Shown piece after piece: positions 1,560 to 27,040 of a stretch of 64,000 nt of DNA. Made by a program: the position numbers and the translations under genes. Below the pieces are notes generated by a model. The model ran no database searches, was not told where the DNA came from, and worked only from the letters and a program-made list of their open reading frames with translations. This DNA comes from Gemmatimonadota bacterium (GTDB taxonomy: Bacteria; Gemmatimonadota; Gemmatimonadetes; Gemmatimonadales; Gemmatimonadaceae): contig JAZKBK010000005.1 in assembly GCA_040388625.1 (NCBI GenBank), forward strand, positions 159,478 to 223,477, read 5' to 3'. Every line of letters starts with the position of its first letter. Position 1 is the first letter of the stretch.

Positions 1560-1581
1560 GTCGATTGCTCCATGGGAATTG

Positions 1582-2163: not shown

Positions 2164-2233
2164 TCATGCAGCGACGCTCATGCAACTGCATTCATGCAAC
2201 TGCATTCATGCAGCTGCAGTCGTGCGGCCACCT
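2164..2233. repeat. tandem 14-nt repeat, about 5 units (TCATGCAACTGCAT), each unit an ATGCA-NN-TGCAT palindrome
   Basis: Units start at 2164, 2178, 2192, 2206 and 2220. Units 2 and 3 are identical and the outer units are degenerate. Together they fill the 62-nt spacer between the cupin stop (2206-2208) and the 4-TM start (2143). Confidence 0.85.
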
Positions 2234-2795: not shown

Positions 2796-3020
2796 GAGTG
2801 ATGTCCGGATTTGATAAATGAATGTAGGCAATTCGCGACCTGATTCAAACTAGAGAACCGGGCGCACCATCGGTGTCAGTGTTTCCCTGAGATGGCGCAA
2901 CCCGTTGCCTGACAAAAAAATCCGGGCTTGCCCGACTGTTTGCGGTGTCCGGCGCCCGTACGTTCATCTCAATGCAGTCACTCACCCGCGCTCCACGCGA
3001 GCCATAAGCGAGGTAGTTGT

Positions 3021-5069: not shown

Positions 5070-5070
5070 A

Positions 5071-5679: not shown

Positions 5680-6939
5680 GTTGCTGCGCCCCGGCGCAGC
5701 CGCGCTGCTCTTGAGTCTTGGTGCGATCACCACGCCAGGGCTGGCGTCGCCTGTGCGTGCTGCGCAGCAGGTCGTCAACGTGTCGCCGACCGGGCCGGTA
5801 CGCAGCATACGGCAGGCGCTGACGATGGTCGCGCGCGGCGGCACGATCATCGTGCATCCCGGAGTCTACAGGGACACCACGATCGTGGTTTCAATCCCCG
5901 TCACGATCATGGGAGACCGGTATCCGGTCCTCGATGGCGAGAACGTACGCCAGATAATGACCGTGACGGCGGACAGCGTTACTGTGCGCGGCATCGCATT
6001 TCGGAACGTCGGTGTCGCGTTCACGGAAGATCTCGCCGCGATAAAGGTCGTGCGGGCGCGCTACTGCTCGATATCCGACAATCGCATCGACAACGGCTTC
6101 TTCGGCATCTACCTGCAGGAAGCCCAGTACTGTGCGGTGATTCGCAACGTGATACGCGGCACGCACGCGCGGGATGCAACATCCGGCAACGGTATTCATC
6201 TCTGGCATTCGCGCGACATCGTCATCCAGGGAAACCGAGTGTCCGGTCATCGCGACGGAATCTATTTCGAGTTCGTTCGTGAGGCTCACGTTCACGACAA
6301 TCTCAGCACGGGAAACCTGCGGTACGGCCTGCACTTCATGTTCTCCGACAGCTGCGATTACGAAGGCAATACCTTCCGGCGCAACGGTGCCGGTGTGGCG
6401 GTCATGTACACGCACAACGTGCGGATGGTGGGTAACCACTTCACCGATAACACCGGCTCGGCCGCATACGGCTTGCTGCTCAAGGAGATATCCGACAGCG
6501 AGCTCAGGGACAACATCTTTTCCGGTAATACGTCGGGGCTGTACGCAGATGGAGCCACGCGGCTGAATGCGCATCACAACACCTTTCTAAACAACGGCTG
6601 GGCGCTCAAGCTCCAGTCCAGCACCGAAGATGCCACATTCACGGCCAACAACTTCGCTGGCAACACGTTCGATGTGAGCACCAATAGTCGCTCGGCACAC
6701 TCGACCTTTCGCGGTAATTACTGGTCCGAGTATCAGGGATACGATCTCAACCGCGACGGTGTAGGAGATGTGGCGTACCGTCCGGTACGGCTCACGTCCG
6801 TCGTGGTAGCGAGATATGAGCCTGCGCTCATCCTGCTACGCAGCAACTTCCTTTTGTTGATGGACGCCGCGGAGCGAGTGCTGCCGGCTCTCACACCTGA
6901 AACGCTGGCCGACTCCGCGCCCGCGATGCGATGGGTAAA

Positions 6940-6943
<4 letters not shown>
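5666..6943 (+). CDS. nosD: NosD, periplasmic parallel beta-helix protein for CuZ assembly
   Basis: Signal peptide plus repeated beta-helix turns (NRIDNGFFGIYL, GNRVSGHRDGIYF, GNTFRRNGAGVAVM...). Position directly before nosF-nosY. Confidence 0.88.
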
Positions 6944-7667
<724 letters not shown>

Positions 7668-7671
<4 letters not shown>

Positions 7672-8456
7672 ACACCATGATGAAGGTTCTCAAGTATCAG
7701 GCGAGAGACGCCATCCGCAGTCGGTGGTTGATTGCCTATGCGCTGTTCTTCCTGGTGGTGACCGACGCGCTGCTGCGCTTCAGTGGCGATCCGGTAAAGG
7801 CTCAGCTGAGCCTCGTGAGTATCGTCCTCTTCGTCGTTCCGCTGGTCGCCATCGTGTTTGGAACCGTATACCTCTACAACGCACGGGAGTTCGTCGAGCT
7901 GATTCTCGCACAGCCTGTCGATCGTCGTCAGACGTACTGCGGCCTCTATCTCGGCCTCACACTTCCGCTGATCGTAACCTTTGTCGTCGGTCTTGCGCTG
8001 CCATTCGCCTTGAACGGACTCGACGCGTTGGCCTGGGGCAGGCTCGCAGCGCTCCTCGTTGCCGGAACCGTCCTGACGTGTGTATTCACAGCAATCGCGA
8101 CGTCGATCGCCGTGAAGTGCGAGGACCGGCTGCGCGGCCTCGGAGCCGCGATCGGAGTGTGGCTGCTCGTTACCATCGTGTACGACGGATTCGTGTTGCT
8201 GGTACTGGCGGTGCTATCGGATTATCCGCTGGAGCGTGCGACGCTCGGACTGATGATGGCCAACCCGATCGACATCGCACGGGTCGGCCTGCTGCTGAGA
8301 TTCGACGGGGCCGCGATGATGGGTTACACCGGCGCCGTATTCCTCAAGTTCTTCAGTGGCTCGTCTGGAATGGTCGTCGCCACGCTTGCGCTGACGGCCT
8401 GGATCATCGCACCGATCGCGTTCGGGGTGCGCGTGTTCCAGAGGAAGGACTTCTGA
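7668..8456 (+). CDS. nosY: NosY, ABC-2 type permease
   Basis: 262 aa with about 6 TM helices. ATGA overlap with the nosF stop and GGGAGG upstream. Confidence 0.85.
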
Positions 8457-12359: not shown

Positions 12360-14156
12360 TCACTTGCGCGACGGATCTGGCGCCGCCGTAAATACGAACG
12401 TTTTGACTATCGCGAATGCAAACAGCACGAGCAACACCGACTGAAGGGCAGTAGTCTCGACCGTGGGGAACACTCCCAGCCACGAAATGTCGGGTACGTG
12501 CGGCAACGGCGTCATCGGCAGCACGTTACCCTCCTGCAATTCCCGTATTCCGCGACCCGCGAACACGAACGCCATGTAGTACAACAGCAGGCTGGTTGCC
12601 GCGAAGAACGTCCGCATCGGAATCTTTACACCGAACCGGTAGAACAGCACGAATACGATGCCCAGCGCGACGGAGCCTGTGACAATTCCCAGCGTGAGCG
12701 GCAGCGCCGCGCCGTGTGCCTGACTGAACAGCGCCTGATAGAAGAGAGCTGTCTCTGCGCCCTCGCGGTACACCGCAAGGAATGCGATGAGCATCAATGC
12801 TCCGCCACTACCTTGCTCCAGCGCCAACGACACCTTCTCTCTGATGAACTTCTGCCATTTGTGCGCTTCGACCTTGGAGATCAGCCAGTAGCTGACGGAG
12901 AAGAGCACCACGACTGCAACCAGCAGCGATACCGCTTCGACGATTTCGCTGCTCGCTGGAATCGCGGCGAGCGCAGTCTTGAGGATCACCGCTGTTATCG
13001 CGCTGGCGACGACACCGAGTGCCGCGCCGATCCAGATGGAGCGCAACCGTTTACGGTTTCCGGTCTTGATGAGAAACGCGACTACGGCACCCACAACGAG
13101 TATCGCTTCGAATCCTTCTCTGAGGATTATGATGAACGATTGCCAGAACATCGTCACGGCACCTTCGTCACTTCCATTTGCGAGCGCCACCGCGCGCGGT
13201 AGTGTGTCTGCGATCTCGTTGCGAGCACGAGTCGCCGCAGCCGTATCACCGCCGCGCACGGCGACCCTGAACTCGCCGAACAAGCGCTCCAACAATGAAA
13301 CCAGTCGGGGGTCCTTCGCGCGCACGACAGTTTCGAGCGGCTCGAAGGCGAGATACGCGTCGAACGCTCCGTCGCTTGCCGTGGCGGCGTTTCCGCGCCT
13401 CGCCGATGCGAGCGAGCTGTCAAGCAATGCGACTATCGAGGCCGCGGTGCTGCTGGCACCGGCTCCAGCGCCGGCAGCCTGCGACGGGAGTGGCATCGGC
13501 TGTCCGCGCAGCTGGTACACATAGTTCACTACCTCCCATCGCTGCTGAGGAGTGAGCGATTCCCCGAACGGCGGCATGGCGGTGCCGTTGATGCCGACCG
13601 ACGTCACATTGTACGCAAGCGTCGGAGTCAGATTCGGGGTGCCCGCCGCGCTTCCGATCGCCGGCACAGCCGTGGACAGAGTCCGCGCCACGGGTCCGTC
13701 GCCGAGCCCGCGCGAGCCATGGCACGAAGCGCAGCTTTCCGTGAAAATCTGTCGCCCGACGGCGGTATCGAGTGGTGCGGACGGCAGCTCCAGTGCAGCT
13801 GCATCGCCCAGGGCCGAAAGCAACGAGGCCCGGTATTGCTCCAGAGCCGCCGGCGGTCGTTTCTGCTTCACGGCGTCGATCAGTTCCTGGAGTGCCGCGC
13901 TGGCGGCCGGAGCGTCCCGTCCCTCCAATCGGCCCGCGACCTCACTGGCGTTTTCCAGGAATCCGGCGACCTCGGCGTACTCCTCCGCCGAGATAAGCTG
14001 GCCTCGCTTGTCGACCGCCAGCCCGTACTCGGAGACTGCGACCGATACGATGCTCGCCAACCTTCTGGCGGCCGTATCCTGGGATCTCATGGTCGCTGGC
14101 GTAAGCCATAGTGAGGCGAGGGCGCAAAGGCACCCTACCCGCCGCTTGCAGTTCAT
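12360..14156 (-). CDS. cytochrome c - FTR1 (high-affinity iron permease) fusion protein
   Basis: N-terminal signal, haem-binding CASCH plus distal MPPF, then a 7-TM FTR1 part with two REGxE motifs (ILREGFEAIL, VYREGAETAL). Confidence 0.85.
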   Translation of the reverse strand: MNCKRRVGCLCALASLWLTPATMRSQDTAARRLASIVSVAVSEYGLAVDKRGQLISAEEYAEVAGFLENASEVAGRLEGRDAPAASAALQELIDAVKQKRPPAALEQYRASLLSALGDAAALELPSAPLDTAVGRQIFTESCASCHGSRGLGDGPVARTLSTAVPAIGSAAGTPNLTPTLAYNVTSVGINGTAMPPFGESLTPQQRWEVVNYVYQLRGQPMPLPSQAAGAGAGASSTAASIVALLDSSLASARRGNAATASDGAFDAYLAFEPLETVVRAKDPRLVSLLERLFGEFRVAVRGGDTAAATRARNEIADTLPRAVALANGSDEGAVTMFWQSFIIILREGFEAILVVGAVVAFLIKTGNRKRLRSIWIGAALGVVASAITAVILKTALAAIPASSEIVEAVSLLVAVVVLFSVSYWLISKVEAHKWQKFIREKVSLALEQGSGGALMLIAFLAVYREGAETALFYQALFSQAHGAALPLTLGIVTGSVALGIVFVLFYRFGVKIPMRTFFAATSLLLYYMAFVFAGRGIRELQEGNVLPMTPLPHVPDISWLGVFPTVETTALQSVLLVLFAFAIVKTFVFTAAPDPSRK

Positions 14157-14222: not shown

Positions 14223-14645
14223 TCAGACAGGGGTGGCTCCGGGCCGCCGCCGGGCGCCGTCGATGGTCCGCCAGATATTGTATACAAAACAGTATGCTGC
14301 GACGGCTGCCAGGACGCCTCCCGTGCCCAGCACGAACGGCGCAGCCGGCACTGCATTTGGCGCGAGGCAGAAGCCGATCACCATCAGCGCCAGACCTGCA
14401 TTGGCGAGCCACCATTGCACAGCTGCCACGCTCCGATTGTGCAACGGATGGCCAGTGAAACGCGGAATTACATGATATGCGACACCGTAAATCATCATCG
14501 TCACAAAGCCCAGCAGATTCATGTGAACGTGCGCAGGCCGGTAGATAATGAGTTGCGGATGCACGGCCATGGCGACACCAAGCGTTACGCCGAGTGCGAG
14601 CCAGGTGATGCTTGCCTTGAGAAACGCCTTTACGAACCACTCCAT
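14223..14645 (-). CDS. 4-TM membrane protein with HxH..L.GF motif, copy B
   Basis: 140 aa; TM2 reads AHVHMNLLGFVTMMIYGVAYHVIPRF. It aligns along its whole length with 1679..2143. Confidence 0.75.
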   Translation of the reverse strand: MEWFVKAFLKASITWLALGVTLGVAMAVHPQLIIYRPAHVHMNLLGFVTMMIYGVAYHVIPRFTGHPLHNRSVAAVQWWLANAGLALMVIGFCLAPNAVPAAPFVLGTGGVLAAVAAYCFVYNIWRTIDGARRRPGATPV

Positions 14646-15079: not shown

Positions 15080-15334
15080 TCACTTCCGGGCAATCTGCAC
15101 GCGCCAGATTTCCGGTCCCTGTGCCTGATACGTCCACTCGAAAGTACCGGGATGCTCCGCTTCGAGCTGATACCGAAGCGGACGCGGATCGTGGTCGTTG
15201 ATGAGAATCATCGACTCCCCTTTCTTGAGACCCTCGAACGCGCGGAAGATGGTGGGATGCTTGTCGCGCGGAGGAATGACGCGAACGTCGAGCTCTATCG
15301 GGCTGGTGGACTGTGCTGCAGTTGACTGTGACAC
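15080..15334 (-). CDS. DUF2249 domain protein
   Basis: 84 aa: ELDVRVIPPRDKHPTIFRAFEGLKKGESMILINDHDPRPLRYQLEAEHPGTFEW, the typical single-domain DUF2249 pattern. Confidence 0.8.
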   Translation of the reverse strand: MSQSTAAQSTSPIELDVRVIPPRDKHPTIFRAFEGLKKGESMILINDHDPRPLRYQLEAEHPGTFEWTYQAQGPEIWRVQIARK

Positions 15335-15389: not shown

Positions 15390-16271
15390 CTATGCGTTGC
15401 GCCAGATTCTCACCTGGACTTCGCTGGTCTCTGGTTCGTCTATGATGAAGTGAAATCCTCGCTCTCTCAGGATTGGTAGAAGGAACTGTGGGACACGCTG
15501 ATTGACCTGGACCAGCATGCTATCAACAGGCAGCGTCTCGAGCGCTTCCAGCGTGCGCACCAGTGGCTCTGGAGGTTCGAGGTCGCGGACGTCGAGCCAC
15601 ACTTCCGTCCGTGCCGTGACACGGTTGTCCGCGCTGTCGCTCATCACGATTCGTGGTGCGACAGGTGCCGACGCCGTTGCTGGTGCCGTTGCTGGTGCCG
15701 TTGCTGGTGCCGTTGCTGGTGCCGTTGCCGAGGGCTCGATTGGTTCCTTTCGCCGAAAGAACCAGACCGACCAATCATCATCGGCATGCTGCTCGACCTT
15801 GTGACCAAAGCCGCGCTTCTCCATCACTCCGAACAGCGGCACCGGCTCGAATGGGGCACGTAGATGCAATACCGCGTCATCACCGAGCCCAGCGACAGCA
15901 GCCATGATTCGCGAGAACGGCTCACCTCCCTTCTTGAGCTCATCGCGCACGTCCAGCTCGACGACGGATGTGAACGGGGGCAAGGGGGTCGAATCGTCCG
16001 ATGTTGCCGCGACCGGACTTGCGGAAATACTTGCGCCTCCGATTCCGAGTACGCCGTTGAGCTCGTTTACGAGAGACTCGACGTTCATCTTGCAGACGCG
16101 AGCTGCCTGTGCCACCGTGGTCACACGGGCCATTATCCGGCGCATCGGCGAATGACGCAATTTCGCCAGTTGCGGTGAGTGGCTCGCTATGACGTCGATC
16201 AAACGCTCGTCGCGCTCGAACAGGCTCTGCAGCTTGTCCGACGCCTGTACAGGGGTAATGCTCGTATTCAT
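15390..16271 (-). CDS. DUF1858-like N-terminal domain plus two DUF2249 domains, with an (ATAP)n linker
   Basis: Start at ATG 16271 (MNTSITPVQ), overlapping the upstream stop as ATGA. The two domains begin VELDVRDELKKGGEPF... and VWLDVRDLEPPEPLVRTLEALETL... The 180-aa Arg-rich extension in the ORF track is rejected. Confidence 0.8.
   Translation of the reverse strand: MNTSITPVQASDKLQSLFERDERLIDVIASHSPQLAKLRHSPMRRIMARVTTVAQAARVCKMNVESLVNELNGVLGIGGASISASPVAATSDDSTPLPPFTSVVELDVRDELKKGGEPFSRIMAAVAGLGDDAVLHLRAPFEPVPLFGVMEKRGFGHKVEQHADDDWSVWFFRRKEPIEPSATAPATAPATAPATAPATASAPVAPRIVMSDSADNRVTARTEVWLDVRDLEPPEPLVRTLEALETLPVDSMLVQVNQRVPQFLLPILRERGFHFIIDEPETSEVQVRIWRNA
15673..15729. repeat. 12-nt tandem repeat GCCGTTGCTGGT x4.5 encoding the (ATAP)n linker
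   Basis: Direct reading of 15673..15732; it encodes PATAPATAPATAPATAPATA on the minus strand. Confidence 0.9.
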
Positions 16272-17674
16272 CTCGATGCCTTCGTGATTGTGGGTTGCAC
16301 GCTCGCCGAGCCTATGCCTCTGAACGATGTGGCAAGCGCCACGCGTGCTATCTGACTCACGAACAGCGCTACGGCGGACGCTACCAGGATCGCTGCGATC
16401 CGGACCACTGGCGAAATGCCCGTTACGACACCTGTAACCATGCCGAGACTGCCGATAGCGAATAACGCGAGATCGATGTGCGCCACGAGCGGGGAATACA
16501 GCTCCGCCACGGTCGGAACACGCTTCTTTCCCATCTCGTTGCGGAAGCGTGCCATCCAGGCGAGGAACGGCACGATCTTGTAGAACTGCCCGATCACATA
16601 GAGTGTGAGGCCGCCGAGCAGGCCCAGCATCACGTAGGCAGTATCGAGTCGACGGTACTCCGGGCCTAAGGCCAGAACTACCGGAGCCAGTGCGGCAGTC
16701 GCCGCGAGAAAGATGAGAGCGGTGCCAGCATGTCGCAGTCCCGCGTCGAGTCGCGGCCGCTTGCGTGCTCTGAAAAAGAGCCACGCCTGTCGGAGAAAGC
16801 AGAATATTCCGCATTCAATCAACAGGAGCCCCAGCCACACGACGACGCTGGATCTGACGCTGTGGCCGACCAATATCCCCGGTGCCAGAAGCAGGACGCC
16901 AGCCGTGAGCAGCGTGAGTGCGCGAGCCGTCCATCTCGTATCGGCGCCGTGCGCCAGGAGAAACATCGGCAGGAGGCGATGTGATATACCGACGATCATC
17001 ACCAGAACCCATCCGATCAGCGCGACGTGGAGATGCGTCGCGAGCACGGTGACGCGCCAGTCGCCGAGGAATCCGGTGTGCAGATTCTGCGAGAGTATGG
17101 CACCAATGCCGAACGTCACGGTGAGAAACGAGAGTGCTATCACGATCGCACTCCATATCACGTCGCGATCGGCCACTCTGCGCAGCGACAGCGCGACATT
17201 TACGATGAGACACGTGACGCCGATCGCTATCAGCGTGATTCCGGAGTTGCGGAGCATCACCGAGCTGAATGCGACTCCGGACGCAAACAGTGCGACACCG
17301 GGCGCGAAGGCGCAGAAGCTGACGTGTCCGGCGCGCTCCGATCTGATCGATACACCGAGTGCGACTGGCAGCAGTTGGTACATCGCCCCGAAGATCGTCA
17401 TGCTGAGCCAGCCGAGCGTGAAGCAATGTGTCACGCCGGCGACATGCGGAGAGAGATACAGACCGGCGGCGAGCTCCGGCGCGATCCAGATGAGTCCGAT
17501 GCAGCCTGTGCACAGGAAGAGCAGCGCGGCCGCGAAGTGCTCGCCGGGAAGGCGTAGCGACGGAGCGCCTTCCATTGCGAGCGCCGCCATCCCTGGCGCA
17601 CGTGGTGGTGCTGACCGCGCGGACCAGGCTGGAGCGCGCGCCGCGATGCGCGGTACCGGTGGAGCGGCACTCAC
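16268..17674 (-). CDS. 12-TM integral membrane protein built from three 4-TM repeats, with NnrS-like / haem-copper-oxidase-like His motifs (family uncertain)
   Basis: 468 aa with about 12 hydrophobic helices. Motifs are VTHCFTLGWLSMTIFGAMYQLLP, THLHVALIGWVLVMIVGISHRLLP and YVMLGLLGGLTLYVIGQFYKIVP. The GTG start overlaps the mrp stop as GTGA. Confidence 0.8.
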   Translation of the reverse strand: MSAAPPVPRIAARAPAWSARSAPPRAPGMAALAMEGAPSLRLPGEHFAAALLFLCTGCIGLIWIAPELAAGLYLSPHVAGVTHCFTLGWLSMTIFGAMYQLLPVALGVSIRSERAGHVSFCAFAPGVALFASGVAFSSVMLRNSGITLIAIGVTCLIVNVALSLRRVADRDVIWSAIVIALSFLTVTFGIGAILSQNLHTGFLGDWRVTVLATHLHVALIGWVLVMIVGISHRLLPMFLLAHGADTRWTARALTLLTAGVLLLAPGILVGHSVRSSVVVWLGLLLIECGIFCFLRQAWLFFRARKRPRLDAGLRHAGTALIFLAATAALAPVVLALGPEYRRLDTAYVMLGLLGGLTLYVIGQFYKIVPFLAWMARFRNEMGKKRVPTVAELYSPLVAHIDLALFAIGSLGMVTGVVTGISPVVRIAAILVASAVALFVSQIARVALATSFRGIGSASVQPTITKASR

Positions 17675-18783
17675 TCTGCGACTGCCTCGCCTTGCGCGAG
17701 CTGCCAGCCAAGCGCGTTGACGACTCTGTGCGCGATCGCGTCGAAGCTTCTGGCGAACTCGCTGTCGCCTCGCGTGATTACAGTCGGAGTGCCTGCGTCT
17801 CCCTCGCCCACCGCCAGTGCATCGAATGGGACTGTTCCGAGCAGCGGCACGTTCAGCGCGGTCGCGACGATGTTACCGCCGCCGCTGCCAAACGCGCCTG
17901 ACATGTTTTCCACGACGCCCAGTACGGGCACATCCAGCTTCGCGAACATGTCTCCCGCCTTCTGCGCCTCGACAGCTGCGAGCCGTTGCGGTTGCGTGAC
18001 AACGATTGCACCGGATACTTCGACGGCCTGCACGAGACTGAGCGGAATGTCGCCCGTGCCCGGCGGCAGATCGACGACGAGTACGTCGAGCTGCGGCCAT
18101 TCCACTCCACGCGCGAACTGCTTCACCGCCTTCGATACCATGGGGCCGCGCCAGATCGCCGGCGACCCCTCGCCCAGGAAGAAACCAAAGCTGATGAGCG
18201 TGAGTCCCAGCACCTCGACCGGAATTATGTGCTTGTCGGCGGTCACGCGAACCTGTTGCGCGCCGTTCTCGATTCCGAGCAGGATCGGCACACTGGGGCC
18301 GTAGATATCGGCGTCGAGAAGGCCGACCACGAATCCCGCGCGAACGAGCGCAAGGGCAAGGCTGACTGCGACCGTACTCTTTCCAACGCCGCCCTTTCCC
18401 GCGCCGACGGCGATGATGTCGCGGACGTTGCTCAGTCTGACGCGGTCCGCCCATGGGTCCGGTACTCCGGCGCGAGCGTGTCCGGAGTCAGGAGCGTGCG
18501 GAACTGGCCTGGTCGGTGGATCCGGTTTGACTATCTCGACCGTGACGAGTGTCGCGCCCATTGCGGAGAGGCGATCCCGGACCGCGACGCTGAGCCGCTC
18601 GGGGATGGACTCGTCCGTGGTGCGGAGCCCCAGCTGAACCTTGACCTGGGTCCCGCACACGGAGACGTGCTTCACCATCCCGAACGACACGACATCGCGC
18701 GTCAGCCCGGGGTAGTGAACGTCTCCGAGCGCGCTGCGTACCTTATCAACGTCGAGCTCGATATCTGGCTCAGCTGTTGCCAT
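17671..18783 (-). CDS. mrp: Mrp/ApbC/NBP35-family Fe-S cluster carrier ATPase with N-terminal DUF59 domain
   Basis: IIAVGAGKGGVGKSTVAVSLALAL deviant Walker A, an N-terminal VHYPGLTRDVVSFGMV segment, and CPxC-less Mrp architecture. 370 aa. Confidence 0.88.
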   Translation of the reverse strand: MATAEPDIELDVDKVRSALGDVHYPGLTRDVVSFGMVKHVSVCGTQVKVQLGLRTTDESIPERLSVAVRDRLSAMGATLVTVEIVKPDPPTRPVPHAPDSGHARAGVPDPWADRVRLSNVRDIIAVGAGKGGVGKSTVAVSLALALVRAGFVVGLLDADIYGPSVPILLGIENGAQQVRVTADKHIIPVEVLGLTLISFGFFLGEGSPAIWRGPMVSKAVKQFARGVEWPQLDVLVVDLPPGTGDIPLSLVQAVEVSGAIVVTQPQRLAAVEAQKAGDMFAKLDVPVLGVVENMSGAFGSGGGNIVATALNVPLLGTVPFDALAVGEGDAGTPTVITRGDSEFARSFDAIAHRVVNALGWQLAQGEAVAE

Positions 18784-18844
18784 GCCAGCACGCTAGCTTG
18801 ACTCCATCTGGCGAGGTGTGACGGATGTCTCAGGAAGACGAGCG

Positions 18845-20071
18845 ATGAGCGATCATGTAGTTGGTTCTGCAGCCCGCGCGAGGGTTCTGCACGAAACGCT
18901 GGCGACACAGTTTCCAGCGTCATTGTTCCAGTTCGATGCGCGAATGGCGGACGGATACTACTCCGACCGCTATTTCGTTCTGACCGCGAAGACCATATCG
19001 CACGCCGGGCTCGATCCGATTGTCACCATGCAGGTGTTTGCAAAACAACAGGGGATCCTTGCTGGCGTTTACGAAGCGCTTCGAATACTGCAGACTCAGC
19101 TCGCGATCAATCCGCGTACCGGAGTTCGCTACGACTTCGCCGAGCTCACGATCGATACGCTCGTGGATGGCGACGTCGTCGTTCCGTGGGAGCCGGTCAT
19201 GCACATCACCGGTCCCTACCTTGCGTTCGCGCATCTGGAAACCGATTACCTGGGCGTGATCGCAAGGCGCACATTGATCGCAACCAACGTGCGACGTGTC
19301 ATCGACGCTGCCAACGGTAAGCCTGTCATCTTCATGGGTGCCCGGCACGACGACTGGCGCGTGCAGACCGCGGACGGATTCGCGGCGAAGATTGGTGGCA
19401 TCGCCAGCGTCTCCACGGATGCGAATGGCGCGTGGTGGGGCGGTGGTGGCGTCGGCACGATGCCACACTCGATGATCGCGTCGTTTGGTGGCGACGTGGT
19501 GCGCGCGACACTTCAATTCGCACGATACTGTCGCGAAGCAGCGCTGAACATCGACGTCGTGAGTCTTACCGATTATCACAACGATGTGATCGGCGACTCG
19601 CTCGCAGTCGCGCGCGCAATGCGCGATGAGTTTGGCGACGGCGCGCTTTGGGGTGTGCGCGTCGATACGAGTGAGAAGCTCGTCGACAGGTCGCTCGAGG
19701 CGCAGGCGATGCGCTTTCCGGAACGACGGCTCAATGGAGTGTGCCCGGAGCTGATCGTTCTGCTGCGGTCGGCGCTCGATGCCGAAGGGTTCCGGTACGT
19801 CAGGATCGGCGTGTCCGGCGGATTCCACGGGCGGAAGATCGAGCGCTTCGAGACGGACCATGTTCCCGTGGACTTCTACGGGGTGGGGAGCTCCCTCCTT
19901 GGTCACAATAACGGTGATATCGACGGCCTCGCGAACAACTTCGACTTCACCGCGGACGTAGTTCGCCTCGATGGGAACGCCGAGAGCAAGGTGGGCAGGG
20001 AGGAACGCGGCAACGCGAGGTTCATACGGGTGGATCACGACCGGCTCGAGCGCACAACTGCCGCGCGATGA
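18845..20071 (+). CDS. nicotinate/nicotinamide phosphoribosyltransferase family protein
   Basis: ADGYYSDRYF..., GILAGVYEA..., GTMPHSMI and VRVDTS motifs of type II PRTases. A GTG at 18818 is an alternative start. Confidence 0.75.
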   Translation: MSDHVVGSAARARVLHETLATQFPASLFQFDARMADGYYSDRYFVLTAKTISHAGLDPIVTMQVFAKQQGILAGVYEALRILQTQLAINPRTGVRYDFAELTIDTLVDGDVVVPWEPVMHITGPYLAFAHLETDYLGVIARRTLIATNVRRVIDAANGKPVIFMGARHDDWRVQTADGFAAKIGGIASVSTDANGAWWGGGGVGTMPHSMIASFGGDVVRATLQFARYCREAALNIDVVSLTDYHNDVIGDSLAVARAMRDEFGDGALWGVRVDTSEKLVDRSLEAQAMRFPERRLNGVCPELIVLLRSALDAEGFRYVRIGVSGGFHGRKIERFETDHVPVDFYGVGSSLLGHNNGDIDGLANNFDFTADVVRLDGNAESKVGREERGNARFIRVDHDRLERTTAAR

Positions 20072-20143
20072 AGGCCGCTTCAGCTTGCATGTAGTCACAC
20101 CGCCCCGCAGATTGCGCGCGATGATACCGGTCGAGGTTGGATA

Positions 20144-20740
20144 GTGACAGTCTGCCTGTGGCTCACGGCGCATGGGTCCAGTTGCCTGGAGGCTGTCGCG
20201 GTCATCTTTGGTATCATCAGCGTCTACCTCGGCACGCGCGAGAATATCTGGAGCTGGCCAACTGCGCTCGTCAACGTGGCGCTCTTCTTTGCGCTCTTCC
20301 TCGAGTCCGGTCTGTACTCGGATACGGGGCTGCAGGTAGTCTATTTCGTCCTGTCACTGTACGGGTGGTACGAATGGCTGTACGGTGGTGCCGGTCGTAC
20401 TGCGATCACTGTAACGCGCACGTCGCGAAGGACGTGGACCGTGCTGGCCGGAATCGGCGTCGTGGTATGGGCGTTGCTCGGAACCATCACGTCCCGGCTG
20501 CCGGGAACAGCACTGCCGTACGTCGACGCCGCGACCACGACTGTGAGTCTGCTGGCTCAGTGGATGATGACCCGCAAGCTCATCGAGAACTGGTTGATCT
20601 GGATTGCCGTCGATGTGGTGTACGTCGGCATGTTCATCTATAAGGGGCTGTATCTCACCGCATTCAATTATGGGATCTATCTCGTCCTGGCGGTGATGGG
20701 CTACTTCGCATGGAAACGATCGCTCGCGGCGACGGCTTGA
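20144..20740 (+). CDS. pnuC: PnuC-family transporter (nicotinamide riboside or related vitamin)
   Basis: About 7 TM helices. TRENIWSWPTALVNVALFF...GWYEW...WIAVDVVYVGMF is the typical PnuC pattern. Confidence 0.8.
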   Translation: MTVCLWLTAHGSSCLEAVAVIFGIISVYLGTRENIWSWPTALVNVALFFALFLESGLYSDTGLQVVYFVLSLYGWYEWLYGGAGRTAITVTRTSRRTWTVLAGIGVVVWALLGTITSRLPGTALPYVDAATTTVSLLAQWMMTRKLIENWLIWIAVDVVYVGMFIYKGLYLTAFNYGIYLVLAVMGYFAWKRSLAATA

Positions 20741-21249
20741 TCCGGGTTGTTCTGATCGGATCGGAATCCACTGGCAAAACTGAGCTTGCCAGGGAGCTAG
20801 CCGAGCACTATCGCGCCGAGCTGGTGCCCGAGTTCGTGCGCGATTTTGCCGTGCGGAAAGCATCTCCGATCGAGCTTGCTGATACCGACGCAATCGCGCA
20901 CGGACAGATGGCGCTCGAAGATGAGCACGCAAAGCGGGCAACGCGGCTGTTGATACAGGATACAGATCTGCTCAGTACTGTCGTATATAGTGGGCACTAT
21001 TACGGAAAGTGTCCGGCGTGGATTGCCGCCGCTGCACACGAGCGCAGGCCGGACCTGTACCTTCTGCTCGAGATCGACGTACCGTGGGTACCGGACGATG
21101 TGCGGGATCGGGGAACACGCCGCAAAGAGATGCAGCAGCTCTTCCGCGACGCGGTCGCCAGATCCGGGTCGGCCTACGTCGTGATCGAGGGGACGTGGGA
21201 GCAGCGATCACTGCGCGCGCGCGCTGCGATCGATCGGTTGCTCGCGTAG
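20737..21249 (+). CDS. NadR-type ribosylnicotinamide kinase-like P-loop protein (kinase domain only)
   Basis: VVLIGSESTGKTELARELA P-loop. TTG 20737 overlaps the pnuC stop as TTGA; ATG 20710 is the alternative start. Confidence 0.7.
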   Translation: MIRVVLIGSESTGKTELARELAEHYRAELVPEFVRDFAVRKASPIELADTDAIAHGQMALEDEHAKRATRLLIQDTDLLSTVVYSGHYYGKCPAWIAAAAHERRPDLYLLLEIDVPWVPDDVRDRGTRRKEMQQLFRDAVARSGSAYVVIEGTWEQRSLRARAAIDRLLA

Positions 21250-21289: not shown

Positions 21290-23383
21290 TCAGATCCCGA
21301 CTTTCAGTGTGACGAATACGTTGCGGGGCGGAAGCACGAAGTAGTACGACACCCCTTCACTCGCATATCCACTTCCGTACTTCTTGCTGTTCGTGAGGTT
21401 GTTGCCGCGAACGAGCAACTCCGCCTGACCGATTCGCCAGCCGATCGACGCATCCAGGTCAGCAGACTCCGGCAGGACATATCTGCGATCGCTCGTGTTC
21501 GCCAGGAATGAGACGCTCTGATATCTACCCTGCACGGCGAGATCGATCGACGGCGTCAGCGCGAACTGCGCGCGCGCGAAGCTCAGGAAGCGCGGCGTGA
21601 GCAACGGCTCGACGTTATGGTAGGTTACCGGCACATTGCCCGACGAATCGGTGTATTCGCGGATCCGGTTCATGCTTTCCGTCGCGTTACCGGAAAGTAT
21701 CCAGCGCGGAAGTCCGCGATAGGTGACGTCGGTCTCGATACCGCGACGGTAGCTCGATGCGACGTTCTTGTTCAAAGGGCTTCCGATGTAGCTGAGTGCG
21801 CCAATCGGTGCGATCTCGTTGCGGAAGTCCATCGAGTAGAGGTTGGCCTGGACATCCAGCGTCGCGCTGCGGTAGTTCGTGCCGATCTCGACGTCGTGAA
21901 CCGTTTCCGGTTTCACGCGACTCAGGCTGCCGACGAATCCGACACTGGACGTGTCCAGATTATCGAAACCGGCGAACATGTCGGTACGCGTCGGCTCGCG
22001 CGAATTCTTGCCGTACGACGCGTACACGGAAAGCGGACGCGTGAGCTGGTATGTAGCACCCACCTTCGGATTCAGGAACGACCATGAGGTCGAGCTGCCC
22101 GGTATGTCGGCATGAACGTCCGGCCTGTACCTGAACTCGGCGTGCCGTGCCTGAAGATCTCCGAATAGAGTTGCGCGGCCCAGGGTATATCCAACCTTGG
22201 CGAAACCAGCCAGATCATGCTTGTAGCTCGTATTGAAGTACAACGGATTGCTGAGATCAGGATGCATGAATGCGTAGTGATCGCGCGCGTAGCTGTCACC
22301 GTTGGCTCCGACGTCGAGCTTGAATCCCGAGAGATGATAACTCCATGCGCCGGTGAAACCGTACGACACGAAGTCGAGGTGCAACGTTTCGAGCGAGTCC
22401 AGAAGGACGTCGTAATCGCCCGTGGCAGCCAACCTGTAAATCGTCCCTGTGAAGGACGAGTTGGAGTTGACCAGATGGGTGTACGACAGGGCCGCCAGTC
22501 GCTCACCGAAGCCGTCGCGTTCCTGCGGGGAGAGCGGATTGATGCGGCGATTGGTGTCCAAGTCGGCTTTTGGAACGGCGAGGTAAGCCATGGTGTCTCG
22601 CATGTAGCCGGCCGTGACTGTGAATTTCAGAATGTCCCTGTCGCCAAAGTAGCCGCCACTCAGAAAGCCGGAAGCGCCATTGACCCCGGAGTGATACCGG
22701 TATCCGTCGGTCTTCAGCTGCGAGACGCGTCCGTAGAAGGCAAGATGGTGCGGTAGCAGACCTGTGTTGTAGTTCGCGCTGGCCCGCAATGAACCGAACG
22801 ATCCGGCCTCTGCCTGGAGCGTGCCGGACCGCGGCGCAGCGGCGAGCGACATCGTTTCCATGTTGATGGAGCCAGCGTACGAAGCTGTACCGTTGCTGCT
22901 GGTTCCGACGCCTCGCTGCACCTGTATGGACTGCAGACTGTTCGCGAGATCGGGAAAGTCTGCGAAGTAGAGAACCTGATCTTCCGGATCGTTGAGCGGG
23001 ATACCGTCCAGAGTGATGTTGATTCGCGACTGATCGATGCCGCGCAACCGGATGTAACTGTAGCCCCAGTAGTTGCCCGTTTCGGCATACGACGTGAGCG
23101 ACGGAGTAGCGCCCTGCAGCACGAGCGGAATGTCCTGCCCGAAATAGTGCTGCTGGATGTCGCTGCGCGACAGTGTTTTCTGCGAGATTGGCGCGTCGGG
23201 TTCTCTGACCGCCGAGATCATCACGCGCTCGAGCTTCCGGGCCGAATCGGCGCGGGACGTCGTATCTCGTTTTGTGTTCTGGGCCGTGAGCGGCGCCGTG
23301 GCCGCAAGCGTGATGAGGATTGACGTCGCAAAGGCAAACGTCGTGACGCGCCTGTAGCGCGGGGGTGTAGCAACTCCATTCAT
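21290..23383 (-). CDS. TonB-dependent outer-membrane receptor (probable thiamine/precursor uptake)
   Basis: 697 aa with signal peptide, plug region and long beta-barrel with a Y/F/G/N-rich pattern. It lies immediately downstream of the TPP riboswitch. Confidence 0.85.
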   Translation of the reverse strand: MNGVATPPRYRRVTTFAFATSILITLAATAPLTAQNTKRDTTSRADSARKLERVMISAVREPDAPISQKTLSRSDIQQHYFGQDIPLVLQGATPSLTSYAETGNYWGYSYIRLRGIDQSRINITLDGIPLNDPEDQVLYFADFPDLANSLQSIQVQRGVGTSSNGTASYAGSINMETMSLAAAPRSGTLQAEAGSFGSLRASANYNTGLLPHHLAFYGRVSQLKTDGYRYHSGVNGASGFLSGGYFGDRDILKFTVTAGYMRDTMAYLAVPKADLDTNRRINPLSPQERDGFGERLAALSYTHLVNSNSSFTGTIYRLAATGDYDVLLDSLETLHLDFVSYGFTGAWSYHLSGFKLDVGANGDSYARDHYAFMHPDLSNPLYFNTSYKHDLAGFAKVGYTLGRATLFGDLQARHAEFRYRPDVHADIPGSSTSWSFLNPKVGATYQLTRPLSVYASYGKNSREPTRTDMFAGFDNLDTSSVGFVGSLSRVKPETVHDVEIGTNYRSATLDVQANLYSMDFRNEIAPIGALSYIGSPLNKNVASSYRRGIETDVTYRGLPRWILSGNATESMNRIREYTDSSGNVPVTYHNVEPLLTPRFLSFARAQFALTPSIDLAVQGRYQSVSFLANTSDRRYVLPESADLDASIGWRIGQAELLVRGNNLTNSKKYGSGYASEGVSYYFVLPPRNVFVTLKVGI

Positions 23384-23390
23384 TTCACTG

Positions 23391-23470
23391 ACTCCCTACG
23401 CCGGTACAAACCGGATCAGGTTCTACGGGACTCTCTCAGCCTGCGCCCTTCGTGGGCAGGCACCCCGGTC
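23391..23470 (-). promoter_or_regulatory. TPP riboswitch (THI element)
   Basis: Minus strand reads CCGGGGUGCCUGCCCACGAAGGGCGCAGGCUGAGAGAGUCCCGUAGAACCUGAUCCGGUUUGUACCGGCGUAGGGAGUCAGUG. It contains the conserved GGGGUGC, CUGAGA and ACCUGAUCCGG...ACCGGCGUAGGGA blocks and ends about 8 nt before the receptor ATG. Confidence 0.9.
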
Positions 23471-23521
23471 AATGGATCAATTTATCGAGCTATGCGTGAC
23501 GGCGCCACGCTCTTGCGCGGA

Positions 23522-25411
23522 TCACTCAGTGGCTGTTTCGACTTCCTCGTCCAGGGGAGAGCAGAGCCACGCATACAACCCGACGGTGAAGATTGCACCG
23601 CCAAGCAGCATGAGCCACAGCTGCTCGTGCCAGATGAGGCCGATGAATGCGATGGTAATCCCAGCAGCGGTAATCAGCGGCTTGACCGTGCCTGCTGGTA
23701 CGTCGATCCCGAGCTCCGCGGCTGTTGATTCAGTCTCGTGCTGGTATGGCGCGGCGCCACTGGCGATCGGGTGGCCATTTCTGTCCCACAATGGATATCG
23801 TGACTCGATGGTCGGCACCACAGCGTAGTTATAGACTGGTGGCGGCGATAGCGTGGACCACTCGATCGTCGGTGCGCCCCATGGGTTGTTGCCTGCGATC
23901 GCCCCATGCCGGCGACTTCGCAGAACGTTGATCACGAAGATCAGCGTCGCTACGGCGATGATGTACGCGCCGATCGTCGATATCTGGTTGTCCAGCGTGA
24001 TCCCCTGTGCGGCGTCGTACGTATACACTCGCCTCGGCATCCCGTTGAGGCCGGCGAAGTGCATGGGGAAGAAGGCGAGGTTCGCCCCGATCAGCGTCAA
24101 CCAGAAATGCCATTTGCCGAGTGGCTCGTCGAGCAGGTGACCGGTCACCTTGGGGAAGTAGTAGTAGAAGCCCGCGAACAATCCCATCATTGTTCCGCCG
24201 AACAGCACGTAGTGAATGTGCGCGACGACAAAGTACGTGTCGGTTTGCTGCAGATCGGTAGGCGCCGATGCGTGCATGACACCGGAAATTCCGCCAATGG
24301 TGAACATCCCGACCAGCCCCAGCGCGAAGAGGCACGCGGTGGCGAAACGGATCGAGCCGCTCCATACGGTCCCCAGCCAGTTGAAGATCTTGATTCCTGT
24401 CGGGATCGCGATCAGCATCGACGTAACGCTGAAAGTCGCATCGGCGACCGGCCCCATGCCGACGGCGAACATGTGGTGCGCCCAGACACCGAACGCGAGA
24501 AATCCGATCAGTATCAACGAATACACCATCGCAGGATATCCGAACAGCGGCTTGCGCGCGAAGGTCGGCAGCACTTCAGAGACCAGGCCGAACGCCGGGA
24601 GAATCAGGATGTACACTTCCGGATGGCCGAACAGCCAGAACAGGTGCTGCCACAGCAGCGGGTCGCCACCGGCCGCGGGTTCGTAAAACTGCGTCCCGAA
24701 GAATCGGTCGAACAACAGAAATGTCAGCGCGACTGTCAGGACCGGAAACGAAACCAGAATCAGGAACTGAGTGACGAATGCTGACCACGTGAATACCGGC
24801 AGCCGCATCATGCGCATGCCGGGCGCACGCATGTTGATGATGGTCGTGATGAAGTTGAACGATGAGGCAAGCGTGGACAGTCCCAGGATCTGCAGTCCGA
24901 TCACATAGAAGTCCATGTTGAGGCCCGGATTGTACAACCGGGTGCTCAGCGGCGCATATCCGAACCATCCGCCGTTTGGCGCCGCGTTCCACAGCCAGCT
25001 CGCGTTGATGAAGAGTCCACCGAGCAGATAGACCCAGTAGCTGAACGCGTTGAGCCGCGGAAAGGCGACGTCGCGCGCGCCGATCTGAAGCGGGACCAGG
25101 ATGTTGAAGAAGGCCGCGCTCAACGGCATGAGAGCCATGAATATCATGGTCGTGCCGTGCATCGTGAATATCTGATTGTACAGCTCGGCGGACACCAGTC
25201 GACCATTTGGTCCAAAGAGCTGCGCGCGGATTACCAGCGCTTCGATTCCACCGAGCAGGAAGAACGTGAGCGAAGTGTAGAGGTACAGCTGGCCAATTCG
25301 CTTGTGGTCGGTGGTGGAGAGCCAACTCCAGATACCGCTTCGTTCTTTCCTTTCTACGTGCGGCGCACCATCCACAGACGTTCGTGGAGGAGCGGTCACC
25401 GTCGTTGCCAT
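23522..25411 (-). CDS. ctaD: haem-copper oxidase subunit I (A-type cytochrome c oxidase CtaD/CoxA), 14-TM form
   Basis: TTDHKRIGQLYLY, FWLFGHPEVYILILPAFG, WAHHMF and HYVLFGG motifs, plus a C-terminal extension with two extra helices. Start at MATTVTAPP (ATG 25411). Confidence 0.9.
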   Translation of the reverse strand: MATTVTAPPRTSVDGAPHVERKERSGIWSWLSTTDHKRIGQLYLYTSLTFFLLGGIEALVIRAQLFGPNGRLVSAELYNQIFTMHGTTMIFMALMPLSAAFFNILVPLQIGARDVAFPRLNAFSYWVYLLGGLFINASWLWNAAPNGGWFGYAPLSTRLYNPGLNMDFYVIGLQILGLSTLASSFNFITTIINMRAPGMRMMRLPVFTWSAFVTQFLILVSFPVLTVALTFLLFDRFFGTQFYEPAAGGDPLLWQHLFWLFGHPEVYILILPAFGLVSEVLPTFARKPLFGYPAMVYSLILIGFLAFGVWAHHMFAVGMGPVADATFSVTSMLIAIPTGIKIFNWLGTVWSGSIRFATACLFALGLVGMFTIGGISGVMHASAPTDLQQTDTYFVVAHIHYVLFGGTMMGLFAGFYYYFPKVTGHLLDEPLGKWHFWLTLIGANLAFFPMHFAGLNGMPRRVYTYDAAQGITLDNQISTIGAYIIAVATLIFVINVLRSRRHGAIAGNNPWGAPTIEWSTLSPPPVYNYAVVPTIESRYPLWDRNGHPIASGAAPYQHETESTAAELGIDVPAGTVKPLITAAGITIAFIGLIWHEQLWLMLLGGAIFTVGLYAWLCSPLDEEVETATE

Positions 25412-25541
25412 GCGTCCATCCCGTGTGCGAAATGGGCAGAGCTCGAAGTGGTGATGCACGGACCATTTCGGCAGTGCCTCCGACGCAGTCTAGGACGATG
25501 GACGGTCGCTTGATGTGACTTATGTCACGTTTCGCGAGTAC

Positions 25542-26264
25542 CTATCTCCCTTGAGCGCGCGCTCGCAGCTTTGCAACATCAGGAATCCGCATCCGCCCGC
25601 GCGGGAGCGATTCCACCAGCCCGGTGCGCTTCAACTGCCGCATCGCGCGTGAAACCGATTCCCGGGCGCTGCCTATCTCCATCGAGAGCTCTTCCTGCGT
25701 ACGATCGAGCTTGATCTCGATTCCGAACTGAGTGTGCGTGCCCGATCTTTCCGCATATCCGACGAGCAGCATCGCCAGCCGCGCGGCTACATCGTGGAAC
25801 GCAAGCGTCTCCGTCACGTGAACGAGGTGCCGGAGGCGCTTGCCGAGTGCGCGAATTATCGCCTGGGCTATGTCCGGATGCTCGCGGTACATCATTTCGA
25901 AATCATCACGCGCGAGAAACATCAGACGTGACGGCTCGACGGTAATCGCCGACGCGGGGTACGGGCCCCCGTCGAACAGTGGCAGCTCGGCGACAGGACG
26001 TCCGGGGCCCTCGATGTGCAGTACCTGCTCCTTGCCGTCCGGGCTCGTGCGATAGATACGCACTCGTCCCGACTGGATCACGTAGAGGCCGCGGCAGGTA
26101 TCGCCAGCGGTAAAGAGCACACGGCCGGCGCCGAAGTCGCGCGCGACACACCGGGCTGCGAGCTGGTGAATTGCCGAGTCTTCGAGTTCCGAGAAGATCG
26201 CCATCTGCCTGAGCAGATGGGTGATCCCGGTTGACGACTCGTCAGTCGATTTTTCCCGTATCAT
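25542..26264 (-). CDS. Crp/Fnr-family transcription regulator (no Fnr-type Cys cluster)
   Basis: cNMP-binding-like domain (GDTCRGLYVIQSGRVRIY) plus C-terminal HTH (TQEELSMEIGSARESVSRAMRQL). ATG 26264 overlaps the upstream stop as ATGA. Confidence 0.85.
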   Translation of the reverse strand: MIREKSTDESSTGITHLLRQMAIFSELEDSAIHQLAARCVARDFGAGRVLFTAGDTCRGLYVIQSGRVRIYRTSPDGKEQVLHIEGPGRPVAELPLFDGGPYPASAITVEPSRLMFLARDDFEMMYREHPDIAQAIIRALGKRLRHLVHVTETLAFHDVAARLAMLLVGYAERSGTHTQFGIEIKLDRTQEELSMEIGSARESVSRAMRQLKRTGLVESLPRGRMRIPDVAKLRARAQGR

Positions 26265-27040
26265 GGGGCGCCGATTCGGAGCGGCGACCACGATGGAGGA
26301 TCGCTGGCCGGGAAGCTGTCGATGGTGCTGTCACGGAATATTTCGCGCGTATCGTGCACACGACGTTGCTCGATCGCGCTGTCAAACAACGCACGGGTGG
26401 AGTCCGTGCAACTGTCTCCGACGCAGGTGAGCGGCGGTACCGAAACGATTCTGCGGTTCCGGACCCTGGCCATCGCGAGTGGCGTGCGCAGACGCGTGCC
26501 GTCCTGCAGCATCATGGTTGGCGTCCCGCGGACGTGATATTCCTCCCGACCGATCCTGCCCTCCTCGGCGACTGCGGCACGTGCGGCCGGACTGGCGAAG
26601 TCACGCTCGAATCGTGCGAAGTCGAGATCGGCAGCGCGTGCCAGCTCCAGCAACACACTGCGGTCGCCGATGTTGCGGCTCTCGCCGAAGAAGGCGCGCC
26701 GTACCGCGAGATCGAGACCCATGGCGATATTCATCCCCTGTTGCCGCGCTGCCCACACGGCTTCGAACGCCGGGAGAGTGGTCGCAGGCCAGTCAGGTGC
26801 AGTATAGGGGACGAAAGATGCGCCTGGCTCCTGTATCGCCGCGAGCCACCATTCCTGCTCCAGCACGTCGCGCGGGGGTGCCTCGTGATTGAACAGCTCC
26901 AGCGGGAAGAAACGCGTATATGCCAGAACGCGGCCGGCGTACTCCGGCTGAACGCGATGCACGCGGACAGCCATCACGTAGCACCAGGGGCAATAGTATT
27001 CAGCCCATTCCCACAATTCCGCGATCGATCGATCACTCAT
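26261..27040 (-). CDS. cytoplasmic DsbA/FrnE-like thioredoxin-fold oxidoreductase
   Basis: CPWC active site near the N-terminus (WAEYYCPWCYV) and no signal peptide. GGGAGG lies 8 nt upstream of ATG 27040. The C-terminal tail ends ...DSFPASDPPSWSPLRIGAP. Confidence 0.7.
   Translation of the reverse strand: MSDRSIAELWEWAEYYCPWCYVMAVRVHRVQPEYAGRVLAYTRFFPLELFNHEAPPRDVLEQEWWLAAIQEPGASFVPYTAPDWPATTLPAFEAVWAARQQGMNIAMGLDLAVRRAFFGESRNIGDRSVLLELARAADLDFARFERDFASPAARAAVAEEGRIGREEYHVRGTPTMMLQDGTRLRTPLAMARVRNRRIVSVPPLTCVGDSCTDSTRALFDSAIEQRRVHDTREIFRDSTIDSFPASDPPSWSPLRIGAP

Follow-up and report, generated by a model that had tools for sequence, protein, structure and literature searches.

Subunit I of haem-copper oxidases (HCOs) consists of twelve transmembrane (TM) helices arranged around three pores, which are formed by helices XI-XII-I-II, III-VI and VII-X and closed by helices VI, X and II, respectively. 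Helix X contributes two His residues: the second holds haem a or b together with the His of helix II, and the first carries haem a3 or b3, which faces the His of helix VI. Proteins with HCO homology (HCOH) were reportedly described by Pei, Li, Kinch and Grishin (Protein Sci 2014), namely stand-alone 4-TM proteins corresponding to a 'single evolutionary unit', and non-catalytic 12-TM proteins of three units, including NnrS, in denitrification contexts. The 4-TM proteins are said to have been proposed to form homo- or heterotrimers mimicking subunit I. Here, we analyzed a stretch of 64,000 nucleotides (in the following, the window; contig JAZKBK010000005.1 of assembly GCA_040388625.1, positions 159,478 to 223,477; G+C content 61%) from a Gemmatimonadota metagenome-assembled genome. 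It encodes a 12-TM three-unit membrane protein of 468 amino acids (aa; 16268..17674, minus strand) and two single-unit homologues, mini A (154 aa; 1679..2143, minus strand) and mini B (140 aa; 14223..14645, minus strand). With a probability of roughly 0.7, the 12-TM protein belongs to the HCOH branch, which has the subunit-I fold without the catalytic binuclear centre, and its members are non-respiratory haem b proteins acting together with DUF2249 proteins of the DrpA/DrpB type and with DUF59/Mrp proteins.

The 12-TM protein is built of three homologous 4-helix units, with a signal well above chance. Residues are numbered according to the 468-aa protein unless stated otherwise (in 440-aa numbering, His83 is H55 and His214 is H186). 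Unit 1 comprises residues 38-168 with TM1-4 (17171..17563), unit 2 residues 169-308 with TM5-8 (16751..17170) and unit 3 residues 309-452 with TM9-12 (16319..16750). The motif G-x7-G-x6-P occurs at residues 88, 221 and 354, i.e., with a spacing of exactly 133 and 133 residues; a fourth match at residue 28 lies in the N-terminal extension and is due to chance. When the sequence was shuffled, three or more matches were obtained in 11 of 20,000 shuffles and four in none of 20,000. For comparison of the units, an alignment of 117 family members was split into three parts and analyzed using hhalign, which gave P=2.3e-8 (95%) for units 1 and 2, P=1.8e-6 (90%) for units 1 and 3 and P=4.1e-5 (70%) for units 2 and 3. 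Reversed sequences, which retain the composition and the hydrophobic periodicity, gave P=0.05-0.18. An AlphaFold2 model calculated from a 68-sequence alignment has 12 helices (predicted local distance difference test (pLDDT) 89.7; predicted template modelling score (pTM) 0.89) and carries the motif in the equivalent helices 2, 6 and 10. A preliminary description of the window, made from the letters alone, had proposed this 3 x 4-TM triplication, and the unit comparisons, the model with its topology and the motif spacing all bear it out. The three open reading frames (ORFs) that it named are present as described, including the quoted helix strings. We also confirmed its statement that repeats 1 and 2 have a His five positions ahead of the first Gly, with the His of repeat 2 belonging to an HxH, and that repeat 3 has a Met there. 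This Met is not conserved across the family; the Tyr two residues before it is.

Both minis are single units of the same kind. Over their entire length, mini A and mini B share 28% identity (BLASTP, E=2e-11), and hhalign of the two families resulted in 98.3% probability (P=1.8e-14), in agreement with the end-to-end alignment reported before. The mini-B family matched units 1, 2 and 3 with P=1.1e-9, 2.6e-7 and 4.9e-6, all stronger than the reversed controls (P=0.002-0.31). For the mini-A family, units 1 and 2 were matched with P=1.2e-5 each (81%), while the comparison with unit 3 (P=0.024; 2%) was no better than the control in hhalign. Thereby, the proposed kinship of the minis with every repeat holds fully for mini B and, for mini A, with units 1 and 2, not with unit 3. 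In its AlphaFold model, mini B has four helices (pLDDT 83.3), the second of which carries the motif, as had been expected; for mini A, the same number is inferred from the alignment with mini B over the whole length. Using Foldseek, the mini-B model was superimposed on four helices of CcoN (3mk7_A) with a template modelling score (TM-score) of 0.82, a root-mean-square deviation of 2.4 Å and 21% identity. The Pfam COX1 model was matched by mini A with 40.2 bits, above the threshold of 34.8, and by mini B with 34.2 bits (E=1.7e-8), just below it and aligned to helix X. NCBIfam models place both minis on positions 340-470 of CtaD/CcoN, which are helices IX-XII including the helix-X HxH. This HxH (His45/His47 in mini A; His39/His41 in TM2 of mini B) is invariant in both families. 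The minis thus have the properties of single-unit HCOH proteins, i.e., four TM helices (modelled for mini B), greatest similarity to helices IX-XII and conserved helix-X His residues. DUF2871 (PF11070) was discarded as a family for the minis, since mini A reached 20.7 bits, below the threshold of 27.4, and mini B gave no match.

At least 2147 homologues of mini B and at least 2739 of mini A were found. Those of mini A are named 'cbb3-type cytochrome c oxidase subunit I' by the Prokaryotic Genome Annotation Pipeline (PGAP); other source names for the minis are 'cbb3-type cytochrome (c) oxidase subunit I/1' and 'heme/copper-type cytochrome/quinol oxidase subunit 1'. Most likely, by homology to CcoN/COX1, the minis would form trimers that bind haems between their subunits. 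Both His residues are invariant, and each of the three interfaces in a homotrimer would present a His-His pair. In one Gemmatimonadaceae genome, mini-A-like and mini-B-like genes lie in tandem after 12-TM and DrpB-like genes (locus L070, 12165-13200; L numbers are our own locus labels), an arrangement that would fit a heteromeric assembly of different single units.

The link of the 12-TM protein to subunit I of oxidases, which the preliminary description had drawn from general knowledge, was substantiated by structure and profile searches. In a Foldseek search of the PDB with the 12-TM model, the top 39 matches were all subunit I of HCOs or nitric oxide (NO) reductases (NORs), with TM-scores of 0.66-0.75; examples of the best matches are CcoN 3mk7 (TM-score 0.73, E=1.8e-7) and NorB 4xyd and 3o0r. 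A profile of 100 diverse 12-TM family members matched CcoN with E=1.6e-9, and 65 of the 100 matched Pfam COX1 individually. The window protein itself reached 17.4 bits with COX1 (PF00115), below the threshold of 34.8. It has the 12-TM core with pseudo-threefold symmetry of HCO subunit I and lacks the set of six canonical His residues (TM2 H, TM6 H, TM7 HH, TM10 HxH). As in three-unit HCOH proteins, its 12 TM helices derive from three homologous units and carry about two conserved His residues.

In the close family, His83 in TM2 (codon 17426..17428), His214 and His216 of the HxH in TM6 (17033..17035 and 17027..17029) and Tyr347 in TM10 (16634..16636) are invariant. For conservation in the wider family, 100 representatives with 23-62% identity were compared, and only His83, His214 and one Gly remained invariant (100/100), His216 being present in 66% and Tyr347 in 67%. 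The latter two residues co-vary: both occur in 62 representatives and neither in 29, with 9 being mixed, which independently supports that His216 and Tyr347 form one site. Tyr347 stands at the first-His position of unit 3, and Met349, at the second-His position, is not conserved. The co-variation at 16628..16636 and 17027..17029 also points to a division of the family into one subclass that has and one that lacks a second (His/Tyr) cofactor site. In hidden Markov model (HMM) alignments to CcoN, the TM2 His is aligned with H207 (the CuB ligand of helix VI) or, equivalently, with H347, and the TM6 HxH with H345/H347. From these alignments, we infer a cofactor layout that is cyclically permuted relative to that of oxidases. 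His83 would correspond to the CuB ligand on helix VI and His214 to the proximal ligand of the high-spin haem, and the pair would bind one haem b in a pore that is empty in true oxidases. The coordination of this universal haem would be bis-His or, with His on the distal side, five-coordinate. At the positions of the two low-spin haem ligands, His216 and Tyr347 would bind a second, His/Tyr haem, expected in about two thirds of the members including the window protein. An extra metal site made of His18 and His214 with His188 and Tyr319 (440-aa numbering) was considered and dropped, because these residues do not co-vary tightly.

In the window, the 12-TM gene lies within a minus-strand series of genes in the order Mrp, 12-TM, DUF1858/DUF2249, DUF2249, mini B, FTR1-cytochrome c and nitronate monooxygenase (NMO)-like. 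The first gene encodes an Mrp/ApbC-type Fe-S carrier with N-terminal DUF59 (17671..18783; Pfam), the third a DrpB-like protein with DUF1858 and two DUF2249 domains (15390..16271; Pfam) and the fourth a DrpA-like single-domain DUF2249 protein of 84 aa (15080..15334; Pfam, E=6e-31). The stop codon of the Mrp gene overlaps the GTG start of the 12-TM gene at 17674 (GTGA), and the 12-TM stop codon overlaps the ATG of the DrpB-like gene (ATGA); because of these 4-nt overlaps at both junctions, the three genes are translationally coupled. Neighborhoods were counted in 80 loci found with the close-family alignment, which yielded Gemmatimonadota only. There, an Mrp gene is located directly upstream of the 12-TM gene in 71 loci, a DUF1858/DUF2249 gene downstream in 74 and a small DUF2249 gene in 66. 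A gene for a CRP-family regulator is found nearby in 54 of the 80, and nosZ in 6.

The family as a whole is large: in a library of 1.8 billion proteins, 2054 clusters at 50% identity were detected at E<=1e-3 and 982 at E<=1e-10. To assess the breadth across phyla, plasmids were searched by tblastn, resulting in 108 records from Rhizobium, Sinorhizobium, Ensifer, Mesorhizobium, Thermus, haloarchaea and Aliarcobacter; every annotated match is labelled 'hypothetical protein'. S. meliloti pSymA and R. phaseoli carry genes for DUF2249, 12-TM, double DUF2249 and DUF59 ('metal-sulfur cluster assembly factor') proteins, flanked by norQD/hemN and nnrS/nirK; in R. phaseoli, nnrR and nnrU follow at a greater distance. 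Two T. thermophilus plasmids encode a DUF2249 protein (72 aa), a DUF1858/DUF2249 protein (273 aa), a mini of 144 aa carrying SHVHAGLVGF, a protoglobin, the 12-TM homologue and a DUF59 protein. This six-gene cassette was located at L083:4512-8310 and L089:9512-13310, with abutting or overlapping gene junctions. A plasmid of the haloarchaeon Natrinema has DUF2249 genes, ric and a gene for a multicopper oxidase in the vicinity of the 12-TM gene; in haloarchaea only nearby DUF2249 genes were seen, in contrast to the cassette in Gemmatimonadota, rhizobia and Thermus. The cassette adjoins nir, nor or nos genes in rhizobia and in some Gemmatimonadota. Concerning the minis, mini A lies 3' of a cupin gene (2206..2691, minus strand, directly upstream of it; weak Pfam Cupin_2 match of 22.6 bits against a threshold of 27.2) and divergent from a Sec-dependent (clade II) nosZ-nosDFY cluster. 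The cupin-mini pairing is also present at L027 and L085, the latter locus having the order ScdA_N, cupin, mini, nrfH and nrfA beside a nirK-like gene, and another mini gene lies divergent from a CRP regulator gene.

The soluble partners in these cassettes resemble a system studied in Thermus thermophilus. DrpA and DrpB modulate the expression of nar and dnr in response to nitrate, and DrpB is attached to the membrane though it has no TM segment (PMC6282519; PMC7694296). DrpB has the DUF1858 plus two DUF2249 architecture (PMC6282519) that is also found in the window gene 15390..16271, and with 15080..15334 the window contains the DrpA architecture as well. The 72-aa and 273-aa proteins of the Thermus plasmids have the sizes, the overlap and the domain architectures of DrpA and DrpB, and a mini and a 12-TM homologue are encoded after this drpAB-like pair. 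As the gene junctions abut or overlap, the drpAB pair may belong to a longer operon with two HCOH membrane proteins and a globin. The Thermus work differs in having treated drpAB as a two-gene operon, with membrane proteins outside the study (PMC6282519). In a further paper, Pei et al. (2014) are cited for an association of DUF2249 with the HCO superfamily and for roles in detoxification and denitrification (PMC11218638). It is therefore plausible that HCOH proteins are the membrane partners of the DrpA/DrpB system. COG4309 we take to be DUF2249. A COG4309 gene was predicted to be co-regulated with norB in Ralstonia (PMC1274295).

Judged by its context, a haem b-based role of the 12-TM protein in NO or denitrification is most likely. 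Both the 12-TM protein and the minis would be haem b membrane proteins of the NO/denitrification response and not respiratory enzymes. They would work with DUF2249 proteins of the DrpA/DrpB type and with the DUF59/Mrp Fe-S factor, in sensing or in protection or repair of metal centres, analogous to NnrS. A further-reaching proposal takes HCOH proteins as the missing membrane component of DrpA/DrpB signalling. By means of haem at the membrane, the cassette would then sense NO and nitrogen oxides, or protect against them, in Gemmatimonadota, rhizobia, Thermus and possibly haloarchaea. The permuted layout of the 12-TM protein would include a haem accessible to ligands between the His residues of TM2 and TM6 besides the His/Tyr haem, and the minis would form three-haem homotrimers like the ancestral state of oxidases. 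We regard this combination as speculative and rather unlikely.

Several other explanations of the 12-TM protein were weighed. The repeats might be a by-product of the amino acid composition of TM segments without true internal homology, as the identity between units is only about 25% and the BLASTP comparison of mini B with unit 3 was not significant (E=0.56). However, reversed controls of equal composition stayed at P=0.05-0.18 as compared to 2e-8 to 4e-5 for the real units, the motif recurs twice at the exact 133-residue spacing and the model adopts the pseudo-threefold oxidase fold, so that compositional similarity retains practically no probability and is effectively refuted by the reversed-sequence controls. 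NnrS, a haem/copper membrane protein of the NO response, was suggested as a relative by the preliminary description, and its 12 TM helices and denitrification context fit, as do sub-threshold matches of the minis to NnrS (PF05940; 24.7 and 19.0 bits against 28). The minis match COX1 better than NnrS, though, and the suggested link turned out to be weak: the 12-TM protein gives no Pfam NnrS match, only 1 of 100 family members does (E=4e-4), and hhalign against NnrS of R. phaseoli resulted in 2.6% probability. Since rhizobia encode a bona fide NnrS beside their own 12-TM copy, the two families are distinct. Membership in the NnrS family, refuted by Pfam, by the profile comparison and by the co-occurring true NnrS, is barely credible. 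NnrS itself has reportedly been classed as a three-unit HCO homologue.

The subunit-I fold, the invariant His pair, which corresponds to the high-spin haem ligand and one of the CuB ligands, and the location of the gene within a denitrification island could also indicate a new catalytic branch of the HCO/NOR superfamily reducing NO or O2. This is very unlikely, because the 100 family members have no conserved His in TM3, TM7 or TM11, including the helix-VII HH positions and their rotational equivalents, and no gene for CoxB/subunit II, CcoO or NorC adjoins the 12-TM gene in the window operon or in the Gemmatimonadota, rhizobial, Thermus and haloarchaeal loci. Standard enzymes are already available, with CtaD in the window and norB in rhizobial loci, and the COX1 score is far below the threshold. 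Lacking the helix-VII copper His residues and a partner subunit, a catalytic oxidase or NOR role was rejected. Somewhat less remote, yet still improbable, is that the protein uses the three-pore scaffold without any cofactor, for instance to conduct or transport NO, nitrite or a metal ion, with the conserved His residues lining the path. Beside the three pores of the fold, the neighboring genes for FTR1 and a Cu-ATPase in the window, FeoAB near one Thermus locus and the DUF59/Mrp protein, which suggests metal trafficking, would be in line with such a function. But the metal-transport neighbors are not conserved across loci, and the positions of the conserved residues are exactly those of haem ligands in oxidases. 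Also, conserved Gln, Arg/Lys and Lys residues three positions before the Pro in TM2, TM6 and TM10, respectively, look rather as if they might bind haem propionates. Non-catalytic haem b proteins of the HCOH branch therefore remain our preferred explanation.

Some observations weigh against this assignment or parts of it. Of the 80 Gemmatimonadota loci, only about 15 contain a mini gene at a distance of up to 10 kb from the 12-TM gene, so that a fixed physical partnership between the two is not implied, and the window neighbors encoding FTR1-cytochrome c, NMO and the Cu-ATPase are not conserved. No FNR/DNR box (TTGA-N6-TCAA) was found in the window and no shared palindrome upstream; NO- or O2-dependent regulation is therefore only suggested, by the adjacent CRP-family gene in 54 of the 80 loci. 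Cofactor binding is predicted for every member, trimerization of the minis is a prediction by analogy as well, and the assignment of pores depends on the sequence alignment to oxidases together with the oxidase geometry given above. The commonest palindrome upstream of Mrp, CGCGA-N7-TCGCG, was seen in 16 of 69 loci; as a regulatory site it was rejected, its frequency in the window being no higher than expected by chance and the relevant intergenic regions being devoid of it.

The start of the 12-TM gene is ambiguous, with either GTG at 17674 (468 aa) or ATG at 17590 (about 440 aa). Most database homologues start at the equivalent of M29 and have about 439 aa, and the 28-residue N-terminal extension (17590..17674) is rich in Ala, Pro and Arg and of low confidence in the model. 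The NCBI entry 'MAG: hypothetical protein [Gemmatimonadota bacterium]' is 100% identical to the protein. No convincing promoter or terminator pattern was found.

Some other genes and elements of the window were noted as well. The FTR1-type iron permease directly downstream of mini B (12360..14156, minus strand) is fused to a long N-terminal region of about 330 residues with a mono-haem cytochrome c domain; this adjacency is confined to the closest relatives (L001 and L002). An NAD-salvage-like trio (18818..21249, plus strand), oriented divergently to the Mrp operon, encodes a protein with the N-terminal domain of quinolinate phosphoribosyltransferase (QRPTase), PnuC and an AAA_28 (NadR-like) kinase, and the position of the PnuC and QRPTase-like genes is kept in the closest relatives (L001, L002, L006-L009). 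A thiamine pyrophosphate (TPP) riboswitch (Rfam RF00059, 73 bits; 23376..23477, minus strand) directly upstream of a TonB-dependent receptor gene (21290..23383) suggests thiamine-regulated uptake. A canonical A-type CtaD (714 bits; 23522..25459, minus strand) adjoins a CRP/FNR-family regulator gene (25542..26291, minus strand), which in most related genomes is located directly upstream of the Mrp/12-TM operon instead. Downstream of the Sec-dependent (clade II) nosZ come nosD, nosF and nosY (2928..8456, plus strand), and neither Pfam nor NCBIfam models match the 224-aa ORF between nosZ and nosD (5005..5679). A 382-aa ORF (447..1595, plus strand), located next to the 3' end of mini A on the opposite strand, has no Pfam match; it may not be a real gene, because it fails the codon-position G+C filter.

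These proteins are of interest in several respects. They bear on the origin of the catalytic core of oxidases and NO reductases by triplication of a 4-helix haem-binding unit, and they are abundant, with at least 2000 sequence clusters of the 12-TM type and thousands of minis. The genes sit in denitrification islands controlling the turnover of NO and N2O in soils. Also, annotation of the minis as 'cbb3-type cytochrome c oxidase subunit I' misleads metabolic reconstruction from metagenomes. In the literature, no experimental characterization of any mini or of the 12-TM family was found, and a search by guessed locus tags yielded no experimental papers on the S. meliloti homologue.

Among known systems, MAPEG proteins (leukotriene C4 (LTC4) synthase) and YgdD share with the minis a 4-TM protomer of a topology that allows trimerization into an oxidase-like 12-helix bundle; in one paper, Pei et al. 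(2014) are cited for this likeness of 4-TM homotrimers to the oxidase core (PMC4602095). MAPEG proteins differ in having no sequence relationship to the minis and no HxH motif. In Foldseek, mini B reached a TM-score of only about 0.43 (E>0.5) with LTC4 synthase, compared to 0.82 with CcoN, and a MAPEG kinship was dismissed in view of this far weaker structural match. Subunit I of HCOs and NORs (CcoN, NorB, CtaD) is much closer, sharing the pseudo-threefold 12-TM fold and the HxH-x4-G[WF] of helix X. However, the 12-TM protein carries its HxH in TM6 and not in TM10, where it has Tyr-x-Met instead, lacks the helix-VII HH pair for CuB/FeB and has no partner subunit. NnrS is likewise a 12-TM protein of NO-responsive regulons encoded in the same denitrification loci, but represents a separate family according to HMM and profile comparisons. 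The best agreement is with the HCOH proteins as reportedly described: the minis resemble helices IX-XII of subunit I, the 12-TM homologue keeps two conserved His residues, and both the denitrification genes and DUF2249 are reportedly associated features. The earlier statement that no such 4-TM family was known overlooked these single-unit families. Judged by what Pei et al. reportedly described, our finding is already known at the level of concept and family, and it adds no new concept, because the evolutionary idea has reportedly been in print since 2014. What may go beyond the literature is the His/Tyr co-variation, the reading of the cofactor layout as permuted, and the cassette of DUF59/Mrp and DrpAB-like genes in three bacterial phyla.

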